A DNA stretch of 64,000 nt from positions 3,594 through 67,593 of the forward strand of contig JAFTSB010000057.1 in NCBI GenBank assembly GCA_017461945.1, in the 5' to 3' direction. Positions 57,436 through 63,771 of the stretch are shown here, one piece after another. Below the pieces are notes generated by a model. The model was given only the letters and a program-made list of their open reading frames with translations. It had not been told where the DNA came from and searched no databases. The stretch's first letter is position 1. The number at the start of each line of letters is the position of its first letter. This DNA is from Clostridia bacterium (lineage in GTDB: Bacteria > Bacillota > Clostridia > Oscillospirales > CAG-272). Both the position numbers and the translations under genes were made by a program.

Positions 57436-57523
57436 AAATGGCCGCTTGAAAAAGGCTATGTGAAGTGTATCCTCGCGATACCGCCTGAGATCAGCGAGTC
57501 TATAAGAAAGAGAGGTGCTTTTC
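57436..57523 (+). promoter_or_regulatory. 5' leader of rplU; possible L21-leader-type autoregulatory RNA
   Basis: An ~88-nt untranslated leader between the promoter and GTG 57524. It sits in the position where Firmicutes carry the L21 leader. The structure was not verified. Confidence 0.3.
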
Positions 57524-57835
57524 GTGTACGCAATTATCGAAACCGGCGGAAAGCAGTACAAGGTCAACGAAGGCGACGTTATCTTCGTTGAAAAGCTCGG
57601 CGTTGCTGAGGGTGAGACCGTAGAGTTCACCAATGTAAAGGCTCTGTCCAAGGACGGCGCTCTGGTTGTTGGTACTCCCGTTGTTGAAGGCGCAAAGGTT
57701 ACCGCTACCGTTGTAAAAGAGGGTAAGGGTAAGAAGGTCGTTGTCTTCAAGTACAAGTCCAAGAAGAACGAGAAGAAGAAGATGGGCCACAGACAGCCCT
57801 ACACGAAGGTTCAGATCAACGCTATCGTTGGTTGA
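57524..57835 (+). CDS. rplU: 50S ribosomal protein L21
   Basis: (V)[27 protein letters not shown] start after GAGAGG. Confidence 0.95.
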
Positions 57836-57837
57836 TC

Positions 57838-58215
57838 ATGACGACCATCACATTTTTCAGAAGCGACGGTATCTTTTACGGGTTTGAGGAAAAGGGCCAC
57901 GTTGGCTATGGCGAGTGGGGCAGCGATCCCTTCTGTGCAATGCTTTCCTCCCTGACCATGTACATCGTTGACGCCATTGAGGAGGTCTATCATGGCGAGG
58001 TCACTTACGATATCAACGACGGTGACACGGTGATTACCATTCGCTCCAAATCCGCTCTCCCTGCCTATGAGGCTGATGAGCGCGTACGCTTTGCCGTTTC
58101 GGGCTTGTTCCTTACGTATTATACGATGCTTGAGGATATGCTGCTCCACGGTGATATGTACGAGTTCACGGGGGACGGTGGCCTCGTCGTAAAGGTCGAG
58201 GACAAAGAATTTTGA
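57838..58215 (+). CDS. prp: ribosomal-processing cysteine protease Prp
   Basis: The His/Cys dyad context GHVGYGEWGSDPFCAMLSS, located between rplU and rpmA. Confidence 0.85.
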   Translation: MTTITFFRSDGIFYGFEEKGHVGYGEWGSDPFCAMLSSLTMYIVDAIEEVYHGEVTYDINDGDTVITIRSKSALPAYEADERVRFAVSGLFLTYYTMLEDMLLHGDMYEFTGDGGLVVKVEDKEF

Positions 58216-58281
58216 CCAAAACCGCCATTGGCGGTATCCGCACACGCACGTGTGTAATTTGATAAGGAGGATTTTCGAACC

Positions 58282-58560
58282 ATGTTGAGAATCAGCTTGC
58301 AGTTCTTCGCCCACAAGAAGGGCGTTGGTTCTACCAAGAACGGCCGCGATAGCGAGTCCAAGCGTCTTGGTGTAAAGGCAGCAGACGGCCAGACCGTAAC
58401 CGCCGGCAGCATTATTGTTCGCCAGAGAGGCACTGCTATTCATCCCGGCAACAACGTTGGCATCGGCAAGGACGACACCCTGTTTGCTCTCATCGAGGGT
58501 AAGGTGAAGTTCGAGCAGAAGAGCCGCGACAAAAAGCAGGTTAGCGTTTACGCCGACTAA
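58282..58560 (+). CDS. rpmA: 50S ribosomal protein L27 with a Prp-cleaved N-terminal extension
   Basis: [32 protein letters not shown]. Confidence 0.95.
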
Positions 58561-58574
58561 ATTTTGTACAGAAT

Positions 58575-58608
58575 AAAAAGGGCGCGCCATCATGGCGCGC
58601 CCTTTTTA
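58575..58608 (+). terminator. intrinsic terminator
   Basis: AGGGCGCGCCAT / ATGGCGCGCCCT followed by TTTTT. Confidence 0.85.
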
Positions 58609-58732
58609 GCATTGCCAAGAGGTGGTCGACGTACTTTTGTACGCCTTGGCCCCCCTTGGCAATGCATCTGCCCCAAAATCGATTGTCGCAACAATCTTTT
58701 TTGAAAAAAGCCAAAAAAATTCAAAAACCCCC

Positions 58733-58761
58733 TTGACAAACCCGTTGTTTTTTAGTATAAT
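58733..58761 (+). promoter_or_regulatory. sigma-70-like promoter of tRNA-Ser
   Basis: TTGACA (58733-58738), 17-nt spacer, TATAAT (58756-58761). Confidence 0.75.
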
Positions 58762-58777
58762 ATATGAGTCGCAGCAC

Positions 58778-58869
58778 GGAGAGATGGCTGAGCTGGTCTA
58801 AGGCGCACGACTGGAAATCGTGTTAGGGCTAATACCCCTACAAGAGTTCGAATCTCTTTCTCTCCGCCA
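58778..58869 (+). tRNA. tRNA-Ser(GGA)
   Basis: 92 nt. Acceptor GGAGAGA/TCTCTCC, anticodon arm CACGA-CTGGAAA-TCGTG, long variable arm, T arm AAGAG-TTCGAAT-CTCTT, then G-CCA. Confidence 0.9.
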
Positions 58870-58906: not shown

Positions 58907-59764
58907 TTAAAACACCTCCAGGCAGCGCTTTTGCACGCTGACGTCCGGGTGCAGATACGTATCGGCGGTGATCGCGATATCAGAGTGGCCGAGCACGTCG
59001 GAAATGATTTTGAGATCCACGCCCTTTTTCAACATCAACGTAGCGTAGCTGTGCCGGAGATCGTGAAAGCGTATGTTAGGGAAATCGAAATTCTCAAGCA
59101 AGATCTTAAATCGGTTCTCCATCTGATTAGGCGTGAGCTTGCAAGCGTAGGATCCGTTATAGGGAGTACAGCATAGCATATCAAAATGCTCCGGTCGCAG
59201 AAGGATGTACCGATCAGAGTCCTCGGTCTTGCAAGGAGTGACCACCTCGCGACCGGACTCCCAGGATCGAGACCGCTGCACGTGCAGCGTCATATCACAC
59301 GGATCCAGGTCGCGCTCTGGGATGATGCCAAGGCACTCACCGCGGCGCAGGCCGTAGCACAGCGCCATGGTCACCGGGATTTCCAGGGAAGTTCCCTGAA
59401 CACAATCAAGCATACGGCGCATCTCGCTTTCCGGCAACACTTGATATTTATACCGGTTGATCCGGGGGAGATCAAAGCGGCCGTAAGGATTGAAATCCAT
59501 ATAACCGCGCCGGATCGCGTAATTGATCATCTTGCGCAACGTGGCGTGCACGTAGACGATCGATCGGTTAGAAAGGCCACGGCCTTTCAGCAGCTCGGTG
59601 AGGAAATCAAGATCAGATACGGTCAGACTGTCGGCCGGAAAGTCACCGAACGCAGGCAGCACGTGCCGGTGCAGGTTCACCCGGTACCCGCGCACGGTGG
59701 AGGGGCGCAACCGGCGCTCACAGTAGTTTTTGAGGAATTCCTCGGCAAGGGTGTTAATGGTCAT
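58907..59764 (-). CDS. tyrosine site-specific recombinase/integrase
   Basis: SAM-like N-domain (NTLAEEFLKNYCERRLRPSTVRGYRVNL). Catalytic contexts LRRGECLGI, HDLRHSYATLML and GHSDIAITADTYLH. Confidence 0.9.
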   Translation of the reverse strand: MTINTLAEEFLKNYCERRLRPSTVRGYRVNLHRHVLPAFGDFPADSLTVSDLDFLTELLKGRGLSNRSIVYVHATLRKMINYAIRRGYMDFNPYGRFDLPRINRYKYQVLPESEMRRMLDCVQGTSLEIPVTMALCYGLRRGECLGIIPERDLDPCDMTLHVQRSRSWESGREVVTPCKTEDSDRYILLRPEHFDMLCCTPYNGSYACKLTPNQMENRFKILLENFDFPNIRFHDLRHSYATLMLKKGVDLKIISDVLGHSDIAITADTYLHPDVSVQKRCLEVF

Positions 59765-60762
59765 TTCATTTTCTCCTTTTCTTCATCGGTCATTTGTCTG
59801 ACACGGGTCATACGGTAGCCAAAACCTACCATCCACTCATACGTAACGACGACGTACTCAACGTCACGACGCAACTGCTCGTTATCGGTATATACAAGAT
59901 CACCATCAGTCACGTCATCCAGCTTGAGCTTGCGCGCAATTTCCTTAAAAACTCCGGTAAAAGAGCACAAGCGCCGACCGGCAAGCGCGGTAGACAACAG
60001 ATCTACAGCACGATCAATCTGCTGATCAGTTCCACGCAGATAATCAGCATCTTTCAACGTATACTTAGCCACCTCAAGGACGGCGCCCTTCAAACTGACC
60101 TCACCGTCATCCATTTCACGAGCTCGCACCTTGTGAATCTCTACCGAAGGATCATAATCCAAACGGCAGCACTCACGCCAAAGCTGCATAAGCTCATCGT
60201 GGTTTATGTAATCCTTACCGTGAAAGTAAGATTCTCTAACGGCAATAATCAAATGCAAATGGGGATGCCACTCAATGCTCCGAAAATACTCCGGGTGGCG
60301 CGTAATCTCAACGGCTTTGAAAACGCCTTTGAATGCTCGATGCACTTTGGCGCGCTGCATAAAACGATTAAAAGCACTTTGGATATCATCTAAGGTACGA
60401 ATCAAATCTGATCCGGCACAGTTCCGAACGGTCAGAGTGCAAAAAACAAAGCGATACCCTTGTGCAGACAACACGTCCATGATCTGCGAGATCTGGCCGT
60501 AAATCTTACGTGTTCGTCTCCACGTACACATGCGACAAAGGCGATCTTTACAAAAATTAGCAAATGATAGCCGAGGAGGGGAACCATCTGTAAAAAAATG
60601 CCACTCGGTATACGTACCACACAGCTCCACAAGTTTGGCACGATCGTGCATACCAAGCCGCTGATAAGAAAAGATCAAGGGCTGATTATCAAGCTTTCGA
60701 TCCACAAACTTGGTGCCAAGCTCACCGCTCTCCAGCTCGTGAGCGGTATCATCAAAATTCAA
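59761..60762 (-). CDS. rolling-circle replication initiator, Rep_1 (pC194/pUB110) family
   Basis: HUH motif WHPHLHLIIAV, active-site Tyr context LEVAKYTLKD, and Cys-rich FANFCKDRLCRMCTWRR. The stop overlaps the integrase ATG (ATGA). Confidence 0.85.
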   Translation of the reverse strand: MNFDDTAHELESGELGTKFVDRKLDNQPLIFSYQRLGMHDRAKLVELCGTYTEWHFFTDGSPPRLSFANFCKDRLCRMCTWRRTRKIYGQISQIMDVLSAQGYRFVFCTLTVRNCAGSDLIRTLDDIQSAFNRFMQRAKVHRAFKGVFKAVEITRHPEYFRSIEWHPHLHLIIAVRESYFHGKDYINHDELMQLWRECCRLDYDPSVEIHKVRAREMDDGEVSLKGAVLEVAKYTLKDADYLRGTDQQIDRAVDLLSTALAGRRLCSFTGVFKEIARKLKLDDVTDGDLVYTDNEQLRRDVEYVVVTYEWMVGFGYRMTRVRQMTDEEKEKMK

Positions 60763-60805
60763 ACCTTTTCACCACCTTTCTTTTAGTGCAGCGAAGATGT
60801 TAACG

Positions 60806-61278
60806 ACGTTACGGTTTACCACAGTTCACACAGCGCGCTACTACTATAGTCCTGCGCTCGCTCCCGCGGCGCGTTACGCTGCGCTTTCATATATTTAGAG
60901 AGAACATTATAAAATTTTGCTCATGAAGAGAACGAAGGATGCGGACGTGTGGAAACTATGGAAAACTCCATATAGTCAGATAAAATGATTCAAATACGTT
61001 TGAGTTTACCACAGTTCCCACACGGGAAGCTGTGCAAACTATGGAAAACCGGACGGTAATGCAGCTAAGGAGGGGGAGGCGCCCCTGGCGCCTTTTTTAC
61101 ATCCCCCCGTAGTCCCCCTTCCTACTGTCAGAACCTACTCGGCGGCCTCTTGGTGTGGTGTCGCTCGCTGCGCTCGCTTTGGGGAAAGCCGCCTATCCTA
61201 ACTTTTGCCTTTCGGAAGGGGGACTGATAAGCGAGACACCGAACAGCCTCCGGCTTTCGGTTTTAACACTTTCGGTTT
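60806..61278. repeat. three sets of short direct repeats upstream of rep (iteron-like)
   Basis: GTTTACCACAGTTC at 60814-60827 and 61004-61017. AAACTATGGAAAAC at 60953-60966 and 61036-61049. CTTTCGG at 61209-61215, 61254-61260 and 61269-61275 (the last two as CTTTCGGTTT). Confidence 0.8.
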
Positions 61279-61313
61279 CTCGCGCTCTTCCAATGAAATA
61301 GAATTTTGATGAT

Positions 61314-61475
61314 TTAATGAGCTGTATCAGAAGAGATGTAAGTGAAAGTGACGTCAATGTGGAATTCATTGGGATTTCTGTTGCTAATAACAGCATCAAC
61401 TGCAAATTCATTGCAAAGTAAAGAATGAACCTTTAAAAAAACTTCTAAAGAATCAAAAACCGCATGAAATTTCAT
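61314..61475 (-). CDS. small hypothetical protein (53 aa), below the ORF-track cut-off
   Basis: AAGGAG SD 8 nt before ATG 61475. MKFHAVFDSLEVFLKVHSLLCNEFAVDAVISNRNPNEFHIDVTFTYISSDTAH. Overlaps the track ORF 61193..61411 in another frame, which has no SD. Confidence 0.45.
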   Translation of the reverse strand: MKFHAVFDSLEVFLKVHSLLCNEFAVDAVISNRNPNEFHIDVTFTYISSDTAH

Positions 61476-61554
61476 TTTCAAAACTCCTTACATTGAAAAC
61501 TATAATAAGATGTAGAATTTTAATTTTGGGCACAGGAGTTGTTTCTATATTCTC

Positions 61555-61900
61555 AAGGCAAGGCACGCGCTCCGCGCGTACGTCGTCGGAGGGTGCGAGA
61601 CCCACGCCAGAGCCGCGCGCAAGCGCGGCGGCACGTGGCATGGTTCTCGCGCTCTCCGATCGACGGGAGGCGGGGAACGGGGAAAGCGAAAAGCCGGTAG
61701 GCCCTTACGGGCGCAAGCTTTGCAGCTTGGGTCCGCCGAGCTCGGCTCCCTGGGAGCCTCGGGTCGATGCGACTTGGGCTCAATGGGGAAAGACAACGTC
61801 CTTTCCATAGACACCGAAACATAGTGCCTCTCAACCGACCGCACCTGGCGTGGGCTGATAGGGAAAGGGGGAAGGGGCAAAACTTGTTGCTTTGGGCGGA
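61555..61900. other. GC-rich, hairpin-dense non-coding segment (candidate structured RNA or single-strand origin)
   Basis: Hairpins at 61565-61579, 61612-61629 (GCCGCGC-GCAA-GCGCGGC), 61744-61758 and 61787-61806. A 10-nt long-range complement joins 61601-61610 and 61845-61854. Only overlapping R/P/A-rich ORFs occur, on both strands. Confidence 0.5.
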
Positions 61901-62290
61901 TCAAGTGGAAAAACCAACAGTCTCGAAAACAAGATTGAACAGAGCACTCATAAAAGCAAAGCCTTCGGTCAACAGCTCCCAGATCAGACGAACAAAATCA
62001 ACAAAGAATTTGAACATACCGACAAAGTAATTCACCAGGAAATCTTTGATGTTTATAAAAAAGCCTTCCACACCGGAAAGATCGCTGTTCCACTTGAAGG
62101 AATAGGGGCTATATACCCCATCTTTGAAATTGGTAACGAAATCAACCAGATCGTCAAAGTTAGGATCAAACAACTGCAGATCTAACAAGATGCGATCGAG
62201 AGAGATCTCACCAACACCGTTTACGGCTCGGATCAGCGAGATACACACCAAAACACCACAGATCAAAGCAAGGAACTTGGGTACTCTCAA
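61901..62290 (-). CDS. small membrane protein (129 aa)
   Basis: N-terminal hydrophobic segment FLALICGVLVCISLI and a hydrophobic C-terminal third. The ATG overlaps the upstream stop (4 nt). Confidence 0.65.
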   Translation of the reverse strand: MRVPKFLALICGVLVCISLIRAVNGVGEISLDRILLDLQLFDPNFDDLVDFVTNFKDGVYSPYSFKWNSDLSGVEGFFINIKDFLVNYFVGMFKFFVDFVRLIWELLTEGFAFMSALFNLVFETVGFST

Positions 62291-63771
62291 AGCACCACCT
62301 TCTTTACAATGATCAGCAGCACGCAGATCGCAAGAATGGATCCAAACGCAGCTCGCATATCAAGACCCAGGACCTCAAAATTGAAAAGACTCTGAAAGGT
62401 ATTGACAGGGGTTTCAACAACCGAAAGCATCAAGCTACGCCAATCACCGGTCTCAGAGATCTGAAGTCCTTCCTTTTTGCCGGCAGAAAAACCGACGTTA
62501 TAACCGACACCATAGCCGGAGTCATAGCTATCCTGGATCGACGTGCCGGAGATCGACTCTTGGCCGGCCATGAACCCTTGTGTATAACCATAAGAGTAAC
62601 CGGGGGAAGCTGCAGTCAGATCTGTCCAAAGACGAAGGCTTGAAAAACTGATCAAAGAAAAACTGCCGGAATACGCCCGGATCGTAAAGAAAAGGATCTC
62701 CTTGGTACTAACCGCATCGCTATAGAAATAGTTAGAGGTACCGTCAGTCTTGATCCAAAGCATAGTACCGCCATCCTCGGCAGCATCTTGAGGCCATTCG
62801 GGCGCCATAATCAGACCGGGGTACGTTGCACTGGGAAGATTGGTATAGATAGGTTTACTGAAAATAAACGACGTGCCGGTAACCGTGCGAGTGCTCCAAT
62901 TAAAGCGAGCTTCCAGATCCGAAAGCAACGAAGCATCAAAGCTGCCGACCAGTTCTGTTATATAACTGATCACATAATTGTACGAACTCGTGAAAGAAGC
63001 GGTACCGTTTGAAAAATCAAAAGGCACGTGATACAAACTATAACTTGAGCTTACGCCATCTACGGTGTATTTGAATGAAAGGGTCAACGTGCAAAGCTCA
63101 AAGATGTTCTTTACAGACGAGTTCTGCAACACATCCGAAAATTCATTCATGGCAGCATCAAAGCCCTCTTGATATTCATCGGAAGCGGAATTATCTGTCG
63201 ACAACGACTGCAGCCACAGCCAGGGCACGGTGTAATCGGGGCGATTGGAAGGAGGCCTACTCACATAAGGATGGCACGAAATATAAACGCTATAATCATC
63301 ATACGTCTGACCGGACTCCATACCCCACTCAATACCAATGGTAATGGTGGATCCTTGCTGAACCTCGATTTCTAAAACCTCCTCGCCGGCCATACCGTCA
63401 AGGACAAAAAATCGATCATCAACACCGATAGAAATATCAAAATATCTAAAACCGGCTTCTGCAGGAAAATCGCTATAGTAATCAACGTAGATCATGCACG
63501 TGGAATAACGTTCCTTAGTCACAGTAAACGTGGCAAGATCACCGTACTGTGCACTTTGGCCGTCTGCTGTGATATACATCAAGCCATCATTATCAAATAT
63601 GATCTGATCTTCTATCAGCACATCAGGAGCATAATTCCACACAATGATATTGTCATTGTTCGTATAAACGTAATCTTCGATATAGTTGATCTCGGACGCC
63701 GACACCGGGATCACCGTCATGGCGACAACCGCAACCAACGCGCCGATCAGCGCAATTACTCTCTTGTACAT
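62287..63771 (-). CDS. secreted protein with a C-terminal membrane anchor (494 aa); possible adsorption/spike protein
   Basis: Signal peptide MYKRVIALIGALVAVVAMTVIPVSA/SE. G/S/Y-rich tract GYSYGYTQGFMAGQ...GYGVGYNVGFSAG. C-terminal TM AAFGSILAICVLLIIV followed by KKVVL. Confidence 0.7.
   Translation of the reverse strand: MYKRVIALIGALVAVVAMTVIPVSASEINYIEDYVYTNNDNIIVWNYAPDVLIEDQIIFDNDGLMYITADGQSAQYGDLATFTVTKERYSTCMIYVDYYSDFPAEAGFRYFDISIGVDDRFFVLDGMAGEEVLEIEVQQGSTITIGIEWGMESGQTYDDYSVYISCHPYVSRPPSNRPDYTVPWLWLQSLSTDNSASDEYQEGFDAAMNEFSDVLQNSSVKNIFELCTLTLSFKYTVDGVSSSYSLYHVPFDFSNGTASFTSSYNYVISYITELVGSFDASLLSDLEARFNWSTRTVTGTSFIFSKPIYTNLPSATYPGLIMAPEWPQDAAEDGGTMLWIKTDGTSNYFYSDAVSTKEILFFTIRAYSGSFSLISFSSLRLWTDLTAASPGYSYGYTQGFMAGQESISGTSIQDSYDSGYGVGYNVGFSAGKKEGLQISETGDWRSLMLSVVETPVNTFQSLFNFEVLGLDMRAAFGSILAICVLLIIVKKVVL

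Follow-up and report, generated by a model that had tools for sequence, protein, structure and literature searches.

A 64-kb window of DNA from a Clostridia bacterium (contig JAFTSB010000057.1) contains, at positions 61555-61900, a GC-rich block densely packed with hairpins, which is called the island here. What is the function of this block? A first-pass annotation, made from the letters alone, had proposed either a structured non-coding RNA or a single-strand origin of a rolling-circle replicon. The explanation that fits best is that the island is an intergenic, non-coding stretch serving as origin region for a filamentous prophage, which encodes a Rep_1 initiator and uses rolling-circle replication. 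The island probably combines a plus-strand origin with a complementary-strand origin (single-strand origin, sso), possibly together with a packaging signal, and would act as single-stranded DNA (ssDNA). Three points had been missed in the annotation: the element is no plasmid but a filamentous prophage, the leftmost hairpin of the island belongs to the double-strand origin (dso), and the closure of a 250-nt domain proposed there is not conserved. Because the element is a filamentous prophage and not a plasmid, a packaging signal comes in as the second candidate function. No known sso type or Rfam family claims the island, and the phage group to which it belongs is under-studied.

The predicted plus-strand origin at the left border

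Within the window, all genes and signals of the prophage are on the minus strand, and comprise an integrase, Rep_1, a non-coding stretch of 1.14 kb between rep and the gene of a 129-amino-acid (aa) protein, that gene, and the gene of a 494-aa protein. The product of rep (59761-60762) belongs to the Rep_1 family of pC194/pUB110 initiators (Pfam PF01446, E = 5.8e-63, 244 of 253 profile positions), and its sequence contains HPHLHLII, which is read as the HUH motif. The gene lies about 0.8 kb from the island, and the nick core of this family abuts the island, in agreement with the rolling-circle context that the first-pass annotation had assumed. This nick core, found at 61537-61558 on the minus strand and overlapping the left edge of the island (61555-61558), reads CCTTGAGAATATAGAAACAAC, i.e. 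CCTTG|AGAATATAGAAACAAC, and is homologous to the origins of pC194 and pUB110, both of which are experimentally known. It is identical to the pUB110 origin CTTGATACATATAGAAATAAC (NC_001384) at 18 of 21 aligned positions, and its heptamer CTTGAGA differs by one change (T to G) from CTTGATA in the pC194 record. In the records of the two plasmids, the origins are on the rep-sense strand upstream of rep (...TCTTATCTTGATAATAAGG... in pC194 and ...TTATCTTGATACATATAGAAATAACG... in pUB110). The likeness of the prophage to these plasmids thus consists of the Rep_1 initiator, CTTG|A(T/G)A at the same place on the rep-sense strand, and hairpins a few bases 5' of the nick, whereas the prophage is an integrating phage, has longer and GC-rich upstream hairpins, and in the window copy carries about 740 extra bases between origin and rep. 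From the sequence, the nick is predicted between 61554 and 61553 (CTTG|A), and Rep would bind, nick, initiate and terminate at this core.

Homologues of Rep number 593, the nearest being 61% identical, and those at 48-61% identity were traced to their contigs for comparison of the intergenic sequences. In blastn and nhmmer searches with the non-coding region, window positions 61500-61659 were found to be 82% identical to the DNA directly upstream of the nearest relative's rep, and the 22-nt core was far more widely shared than the rest of the region. About 80 distinct Rep_1 contigs carry a 19-nt core, CTTGATACTATAGAAACAA, upstream of rep.

Seven nucleotides 5' of CTTGA stands the GC hairpin ACGCGC-GGA-GCGCGT (61565-61579, minus strand), which had been correctly noted in the first-pass annotation from the other strand, as ACGCGC-TCC-GCGCGT. 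Hairpins of at least 5 bp are present upstream of 72 of the 81 distinct nick sites, mostly 6-11 nt from CTTGA, with GGA as the commonest loop and 57 different stems. Because a hairpin is a general partner of the nick core, the GGA hairpin is assigned to the dso, where it is probably a recognition or termination hairpin for Rep. In the alignment described below, its helix (helix 5) is 97% paired, with double-sided changes in three of five pairs, and RNAalifold recovers it from the unfitted alignment. HUH relaxases recognize a hairpin during termination. As in their oriT architecture, the nick sites here have a short inverted repeat on the 5' side of the cleavage motif, at a fixed 6-11 nt, with a variable stem and a conserved loop and spacing. 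The prophage site is a replication origin and not a transfer origin, and binding of its hairpin by Rep_1 is putative.

Just 3' of the nick, a stretch that is truly AT-rich (61290-61536, minus strand, GC 0.30) precedes a 53-aa open reading frame (ORF) in the window, and its counterpart in relatives would be the leader of rep with promoter and ribosome-binding site. In the relatives, rep starts about 70-90 nt after the nick. The only consensus promoter match in the stretch is on the plus strand (61477-61506). It is a sigma-70-like TTCAAA-18-TATAAT (10/12), from which transcripts would run across the nick into the island, opposite in sense to the phage genes; by eye, about half of the relatives have a TATAAT so oriented.

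Conserved hairpins and strand-specific tracts

The island has 64.7% GC, against 52.6% in the host part and 48.7% in the prophage part, and only 0.13% of the 346-nt windows within the 64 kb reach its GC fraction (0.647). Thus, the island is indeed GC-rich, as the first reading had it, although the element around it, described there as AT-rich, is merely mildly so outside the stretch 3' of the nick. In comparison with dinucleotide shuffles, the island folds strongly both as RNA (z = -4.3 on the plus and -4.05 on the minus strand) and as DNA (z = -3.6 and -4.2, respectively), and no shuffle equalled it. The RNA fold energy is -170.6 kcal/mol on the plus strand and -154.6 on the minus strand. The island also holds the most stable 150-nt stretch of the 12-kb locus L001, a metagenomic counterpart of the window (-48.6 kcal/mol against a mean of -17.9, sd 5.7).

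The same architecture is found in relatives. In 10 of them, with Reps 48-61% identical, the order is always the stop codon of the last gene, a GC-rich block, the long hairpin, the small hairpin, the nick, an AT-rich leader of about 70 nt and rep, and their GC-rich block measures 240-340 nt with a GC fraction of 0.60-0.77, against 0.45-0.51 for their contigs. In L010, L011 and L051, with Reps 42-43% identical, the hairpin-plus-nick cassette is inverted relative to rep and its internal order is kept. In these three (9518-9609 in L010), the cassette is upstream of rep on the opposite strand, and about 400 nt of further GC-rich structured DNA come before rep.

The long hairpin is an imperfect hairpin of 83 nt on the minus strand (61582-61664), with GAGAGCGCGAGAA/TCTCGCAC at its base and GTGCCSCCGCGC-TTGC-GCGCGG at its apex, and is a candidate complementary-strand origin and/or packaging signal. 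The element GCCGCGC-GCAA-GCGCGGC (61612-61629), taken in the first-pass annotation for a free-standing hairpin with a GNRA loop, is present, but it is the tip of this longer structure. A covariance model, R1, was built for the hairpin module, and 12 instances were aligned, the alignment being fitted to the model; the long hairpin itself matches at 151 bits. In this alignment, 86% of the cells are paired, compared with 72% in column shuffles, and 24 pairs show double-sided changes, compared with 13.1 in the shuffles. None of 500 shuffles reached any of the observed covariation measures, and slid controls gave 33-55% paired. In the long hairpin, base and apex keep their sequence, and the mid-stem covaries: helix 3 is 95% paired, and 10 of its 14 pairs have changed on both sides. 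RNAalifold recovers the core of both hairpins from an unfitted MAFFT alignment, and in single-sequence folds each relative forms the long and the short hairpin likewise on its own.

The remainder of the island, its 5' module (61667-61900, minus strand), consists in the centroid DNA fold of short hairpins split by unpaired C-rich tracts. Its hairpins are at 61840-61850 (CGCCAGGTGCG), 61763-61773, 61744-61758, 61715-61730 and 61702-61713, and the core CCTTTCCCTATCAG..CGCCAGGTGCG is common to the window, L008 and L135. In other relatives, this place is taken by another kind of 5' module, type A, which has a covarying hairpin of its own. The small structures pointed out in this part earlier are all there, namely GGCTCC-CTG-GGAGCC (61744-61758), GGAAAG-N8-CTTTCC (61787-61806) and the palindrome GCCGAGCTCGGC (61735-61746). 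A 10-nt complement between 61601-61610 and 61845-61854, which had been thought to close a domain of about 250 nt, also exists (inverted repeat I13), but this closure is not conserved. The pairing competes for bases already paired within the 83-nt hairpin, and an equivalent complement was not found by eye in L008 and L135, the two relatives with the same 5' module. A canonical G-quadruplex motif, GGGCTGATAGGGAAAGGGGGAAGGGG, is located at 61852-61877 on the plus strand, the viral strand being an i-motif-capable C-tract; the motif is confined to the window and L135 and absent in other relatives, and was dropped as a general feature of the island.

The minus strand is the gene-sense strand, and by analogy to the Ff phages it would also be the nicked and packaged (viral) strand. 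On this strand, the island contains a family of direct repeats (D1) of the form (C/G)TTCCC(C), with CTTTCCCTAT at 61858-61867 and further tracts at 61783-61792, 61677-61686, about 61671-61676 and about 61868-61873. TTCCC occurs five times in the island, against 0.62 expected from composition, and never on the other strand. Over 11 related islands, TTCCC is found 20 times on the viral strand and not once on its complement; for CCC against GGG the numbers on the viral strand are 125 and 38, and for (C/T)CCC against its complement 75 and 13. The neighbouring genes have a GC skew opposite to that of the island, and in the window the TTCCC(C) tracts fall in predicted unpaired spacers between the hairpins. 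Such asymmetry would be compatible with an orientation-dependent conversion of ssDNA. The primase of Clostridioides difficile, unlike those of the other bacteria tested, prefers 5'-d(CCC), best with a C or T on the 5' side (PMC5204125), which suggests, by analogy, that primase may start at the TTCCC(C) tracts.

Taken together, the following course of replication is proposed. Rep would bind the dso, which comprises nick core (61537-61558) plus GGA-triloop hairpin (61565-61579), and nick CTTG|A, and leading-strand synthesis would proceed into rep and around the circle. The island is directly 5' of the nick on the nicked strand, and displacement of the old strand would come to it last. In single-stranded DNA, whether displaced or infecting, both the 83-nt hairpin and the smaller GC hairpins would fold and resist single-strand-binding protein (SSB), and the short TTCCC(C) tracts would stay unpaired between them. 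Hairpins and tracts would together form the sso, primed by a host enzyme. Start of DnaG primase in the (T/C)CCC tracts, in the manner of phage G4, is favoured by analogy over the alternative, priming by RNA polymerase as in ssoA or Ff. The long hairpin may additionally, or instead, be a packaging signal. We tentatively suggest that the island represents an undescribed class of complementary-strand origin of Rep_1-encoding filamentous phages from gut Clostridia, in which GC hairpins present TTCCC(C) to DnaG and the 83-nt hairpin doubles as packaging signal, although this combined proposal is a good deal less likely than an origin function as such.

Known origins and rival explanations

In rolling-circle plasmids, the sso is directly upstream of the dso and is thereby exposed last (Khan 2005, as quoted in PMC5037232). 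The island resembles the known types (ssoA, ssoU, ssoT and ssoW, plus ssoL) in being a non-coding, folded block of the 150-350 nt range, directly upstream of the dso on the displaced strand, with strand-specific sequence content and the most stable structure of the replicon. It is unlike them in being GC-rich and not AT-rich, and in having TTCCC(C) tracts instead of the RSB and CS-6 motifs. Of the options of the first-pass annotation, the single-strand origin is thus favoured by position, conservation and covariation, as a candidate function. The plasmids add a further argument. In a scan of fold stability over 67 contigs carrying one nick core, the 150 nt upstream of the nick were the most stable window of the contig in all six phage-type relatives tested, and the same rank was found in four small plasmid-like contigs, namely L055, L056 and L105, all circular, and L128. 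In most small plasmids with the same nick core, the strongest structure is elsewhere. Since these do without a long GC hairpin at this place, Rep function does not need it, and an accessory role of the hairpin, as sso or packaging signal, is therefore argued. Small plasmids without virion proteins must have an sso, and those that carry a comparable hairpin tilt the assignment to the sso. Several of the small Rep_1 contigs (L055, L056, L105, L121, L125, L099 and L042) are circular and represent complete plasmids of 2-3 kb.

The origin of phage G4 has stable hairpins beside a short trinucleotide at which primase starts, left single-stranded in SSB-coated viral DNA. The hairpins of the island flank (T/C)CCC tracts that would fit the preference of Clostridial primase in a similar way, with the difference that there is no sequence relation and that the start motif would be CCC instead of CTG.

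Several observations weigh against an sso in the island. The covariation is based on 12 related sequences. Both strands fold about equally and the strand is not picked by thermodynamics, nor is it settled by the excess of G.T over A.C (24 against 12), which was counted on the structure-fitted alignment. An RSB-like 17-mer (e.g. TTATGCCGAGAAAATTT) had no match within five mismatches on either strand of the island, where the hexamer CGAGAA is the sole overlap of RSB with the conserved hairpin base. CS-6 (TAGCGT/A) is absent from both strands of the window island and from nine of 10 relatives, the loop here being TTGC. These are the motifs of ssoA (PMC4598088; RSB also from the pC194 record), and identity with ssoA was rejected for their absence. 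No similarity to ssoU, ssoT, ssoW or ssoL was found either: blastn (word size 11) with 60763-61900 against 72,556 PLSDB plasmids gave no match at E <= 0.01. As to the priming enzyme, the primase idea would carry the preference of C. difficile over to an uncultured Clostridia host, and a zinc-finger motif search for dnaG found none in the window. In the GC-rich stems, -35/-10-like hexamers were found neither by eye nor by a promoter scan, which covers duplex promoters only, and priming by RNA polymerase of the ssoA or Ff type is therefore without sequence support. Finally, L137 (7911 nt) shares the morphogenesis genes (Zot 80%, coat 69%) and Rep_1 and has no intergenic island; it has no recognisable nick core, and its rep directly follows the previous gene.

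The long hairpin or the whole island could instead be mainly a packaging (morphogenetic) signal, recognised by assembly proteins to start extrusion, a role that is compatible with an sso and that we regard as possible rather than probable. The intergenic region of Ff phages carries the minus-strand origin beside the nick, plus a long packaging hairpin. As in Ff (f1/M13/fd) and IKe, the region of the inovirus-like prophage is between the last morphogenesis gene and the replication gene, with a series of hairpins that ends at the plus-strand nick. Its initiator is however Rep_1 and not of the gpII type, there is no sequence similarity, and the host is a Clostridia bacterium of Gram-positive type. 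In Ff and IKe, the packaging signal is found in the intergenic region that separates gene IV from the origin (bioRxiv 10.1101/2023.12.30.573655), with hairpin stems of 24 and 22 bp, respectively (78 nt in Ff), and the imperfect hairpin of 83 nt occupies the equivalent place in the prophage. Its sequence also seems to track the morphogenesis module and not Rep: in L131/L132, whose Rep is no more distant than those of the others (56%) but whose assembly module differs (Zot 25%), a long hairpin of different sequence stands at the same position. On the other hand, the packaging hairpin of Ff stands at the greatest distance from the nick, the hairpins close to the nick being the minus-strand origin, whereas the long hairpin here is nick-proximal. 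The four plasmid-like contigs named above carry a comparable GC hairpin at the same position without virion proteins, and L137 lacks the hairpin in spite of its shared assembly genes. Packaging signals of integrative filamentous phages, largely unknown, are short (20-26 nt) in the described cases (bioRxiv 10.1101/2023.12.30.573655).

A rather unlikely reading, though less so than the ones that follow, is that the island is an extended dso, with duplex inverted repeats that bind Rep or melting cruciforms, and no role in lagging-strand priming. The Rep-binding element of the pC194 family typically has inverted repeats beside the nick (PMC5037232), the nick core and the small GGA-loop hairpin are clearly coupled, and the equal folding of both strands is what true palindromes would give. 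The plasmids pC194 and pUB110 have their best R1 matches at their origins, with the hairpin upstream of the nick, although these are weak (E = 0.22 and 0.023). Most replicons with nick core and small hairpin, however, have no long GC hairpin upstream, the sequence of the long hairpin is independent of Rep relatedness, and duplex palindromes leave the 230-nt 5' module and the strand-asymmetric TTCCC tracts unexplained. It is improbable that the island acts as RNA, either on the minus strand, where it would be the structured 3' end of the late operon, its terminator or an insulator, or on the plus strand as an antisense or non-coding RNA from the promoter match at 61477-61506. Rho loading sites are C-rich and G-poor, and the C-rich, G-poor spacers on the mRNA-sense strand resemble them. 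The predicted RNA fold is strong, slightly more so for the plus strand, the promoter match points into the island, and intergenic structures of Ff have been implicated in transcription termination of gene IV (PMC10334589). Against this, none of the hairpins is followed by a U-tract, no terminator-like site is present on the minus strand, and the plus-strand TATAAT is limited to about half of the relatives. At the gathering threshold, Rfam reports two tRNAs only for the whole 64-kb window, and at a permissive threshold nothing relevant for 60700-62000, where the best-scoring model in the island, for a plant miRNA, reaches 26.6 bits and has its gathering score at 168. The structure is tied to the nick: even in the inverted cassettes, its order is kept relative to the nick and not to rep. 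The first-pass option of a structured RNA thus finds no support.

That the island codes for a protein, or is a decayed fragment of a GC-rich host gene, can be discarded with near certainty. A 119-aa Arg/Pro-rich ORF (61545-61904, minus strand) overlaps the upstream stop codon by 4 nt with its start, as in translational coupling, and a gene caller placed a 115-aa ORF at the same place in L006. But the two products are unrelated (BLASTP E = 0.36), and the 119-aa ORF has no Pfam match. The longest stop-free frame relative to the conserved hairpin varies between relatives, and the conserved hairpin has indels whose lengths are not multiples of three. Stop codons being AT-rich, all three frames are long. 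The coding hypothesis was rejected on the unrelated products and the lack of a conserved frame, and the first-pass judgement that no credible ORF is present stands. As for a host-gene fragment, the position of the island is conserved in at least 10 phages and not in host genomes.

The prophage, its family and the meaning of its proposed origin region

Judged by its genes, the host element is an integrated filamentous (inovirus-like) prophage of about 9 kb. It is truncated by the end of the window, and the whole unit is seen in L001, an ENA metagenome contig identical to the window (100% over 1601 nt). There it starts with a DUF2726 protein and a helix-turn-helix repressor on the opposite strand, followed by small genes including a recombination directionality factor, by proteins of 98 aa, 78 aa (hydrophobic) and 261 aa (with a Walker A motif, starting MVLVTGGVKTGKST), then by the 109-aa, 494-aa and 129-aa proteins, the non-coding region, Rep and the integrase. 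Compared with the annotated 'Zonula occludens toxin' (Zot) of Inoviridae records, the 261-aa protein has 40-62% identity over 86-99% of its length in 12 cases and 30% identity in a 13th, and the gene order in the records with Zot matches is the same as in the prophage. The Pfam Zot model gave no match, and the Zot-like identity comes solely from tblastn against phage records; PHROGs, Pfam and NCBIfam gave nothing useful for the structural genes. Because of the Zot-like ATPase and the synteny shared with Inoviridae, the element is regarded as an inovirus-like filamentous prophage. The features that mark Ff-type phages, namely a Zot/pI-like ATPase, a small hydrophobic protein and inovirus synteny, were all found.

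The stop codon of the 129-aa membrane protein (61901-62290, minus strand), the last gene of the morphogenesis module, is the right border of the island. This protein is pVI-like by position, is 25-40% identical to its relatives (tblastn), and is in synteny with Inoviridae records (Zot, about 110 aa, large protein, about 130 aa, rep). The 494-aa protein (62287-63771, minus strand) has a signal peptide, Gly/Ser-rich linkers and a C-terminal membrane anchor, and may be pIII-like from its position and architecture; its counterparts in relatives have 424-964 aa. On the other side of rep, a tyrosine integrase (58907-59764, minus strand, Pfam PF00589) adjoins a tRNA-Ser(GGA) (58778-58869, plus strand, Rfam/tRNA match), the attachment site. 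The prophage sits at this tRNA directly downstream of the rplU-prp-rpmA (L21-Prp-L27) operon (57515-58869). The integrase adjoins the L27 gene also in the related prophages L005, L139 and L140 and in the further copies L002 and L004, and the attachment site is therefore conserved across the family.

The window copy has some peculiarities between origin and rep. The extra ~740 nt between the nick with its AT-rich leader and rep (60763-61536) occur in none of the relatives. They include the 53-aa ORF (61314-61475, minus strand), which has an AAGGAG ribosome-binding site and no family match, and, at about 61040-61290, another GC-rich block, in which the long-hairpin base recurs as a degenerate second copy, GAGCGCGAGAAAC...GTGTCTCGC (61226-61288, R1 E = 0.2). 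This block and the island have the motifs TATCAG, CCCCCTTCC and CTTTCCCC in common. Near rep, a 19-23-nt motif is present four times in alternating orientation, as GTTTACCACAGTTC(A/C)CACA or as its near-complement TGTG(G/C)AAACTATGGAAAAC, at 60806-60832, 60946-60968, 60996-61024 and 61031-61049. These copies resemble operator or iteron sites just upstream of rep, and none was seen in the intergenic sequences of relatives.

Relatives are present in metagenome-assembled genomes of Oscillospiraceae and Eubacteriales. A near-identical metagenomic copy, L003, has a 16-nt deletion (equivalent to window 61982-61997) that frameshifts the 129-aa gene, and two substitutions; its island is unchanged, and its differences, lying in the neighbouring gene, are uninformative on the island. 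L136 (9232 nt) has a 30-nt terminal overlap and still contains the integrase, and because of this overlap it is taken as the circular episomal or virion form of a related phage. The 'bajarodino virus' Inoviridae records from rodent faeces (L151, L152 and L154) have the same morphogenesis module and synteny as the prophage. The origin model has no match in these three records, where the last annotated gene is separated from the replication gene by only about 90-280 nt, and the viruses apparently use another initiator or origin. Since they share the morphogenesis genes and not the origin, assembly and replication modules have evidently been exchanged independently. Searches in larger collections gave no further relatives: blastn with the 1.1-kb intergenic region had no match among 50,697 phage records, single-protein scans of IMG/VR with Rep and the 494-aa protein found none, and an exact-pattern scan of IMG/VR with the hairpin apex found chance matches only, in coding regions of high-GC phages.

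Metagenomes commonly contain filamentous phages of gut Clostridia. In the literature searched, no description of their cis-acting DNA signals was found, and PMC10061712 is silent on intergenic signals. Here, the plus-strand origin of one such phage family is fixed to a few bases, and an adjacent module of conserved, covarying hairpins is defined. For annotation, this means that Arg/Pro-rich 'genes' of 115-119 aa called over such islands are artefacts, and the 19-nt core with the GGA-loop hairpin could serve as a marker for Rep_1 phage and plasmid origins in metagenomes. The origin region also gives a basis for replicons or phagemids in the genetically intractable Oscillospiraceae and related Clostridia, and a starting point for asking whether the CCC specificity of Clostridial primase shapes the origins of phages. 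If the sso and packaging functions proposed for the island are true, this would be the first time that a minus-strand origin and a packaging signal are defined for an inovirus of Gram-positive type.

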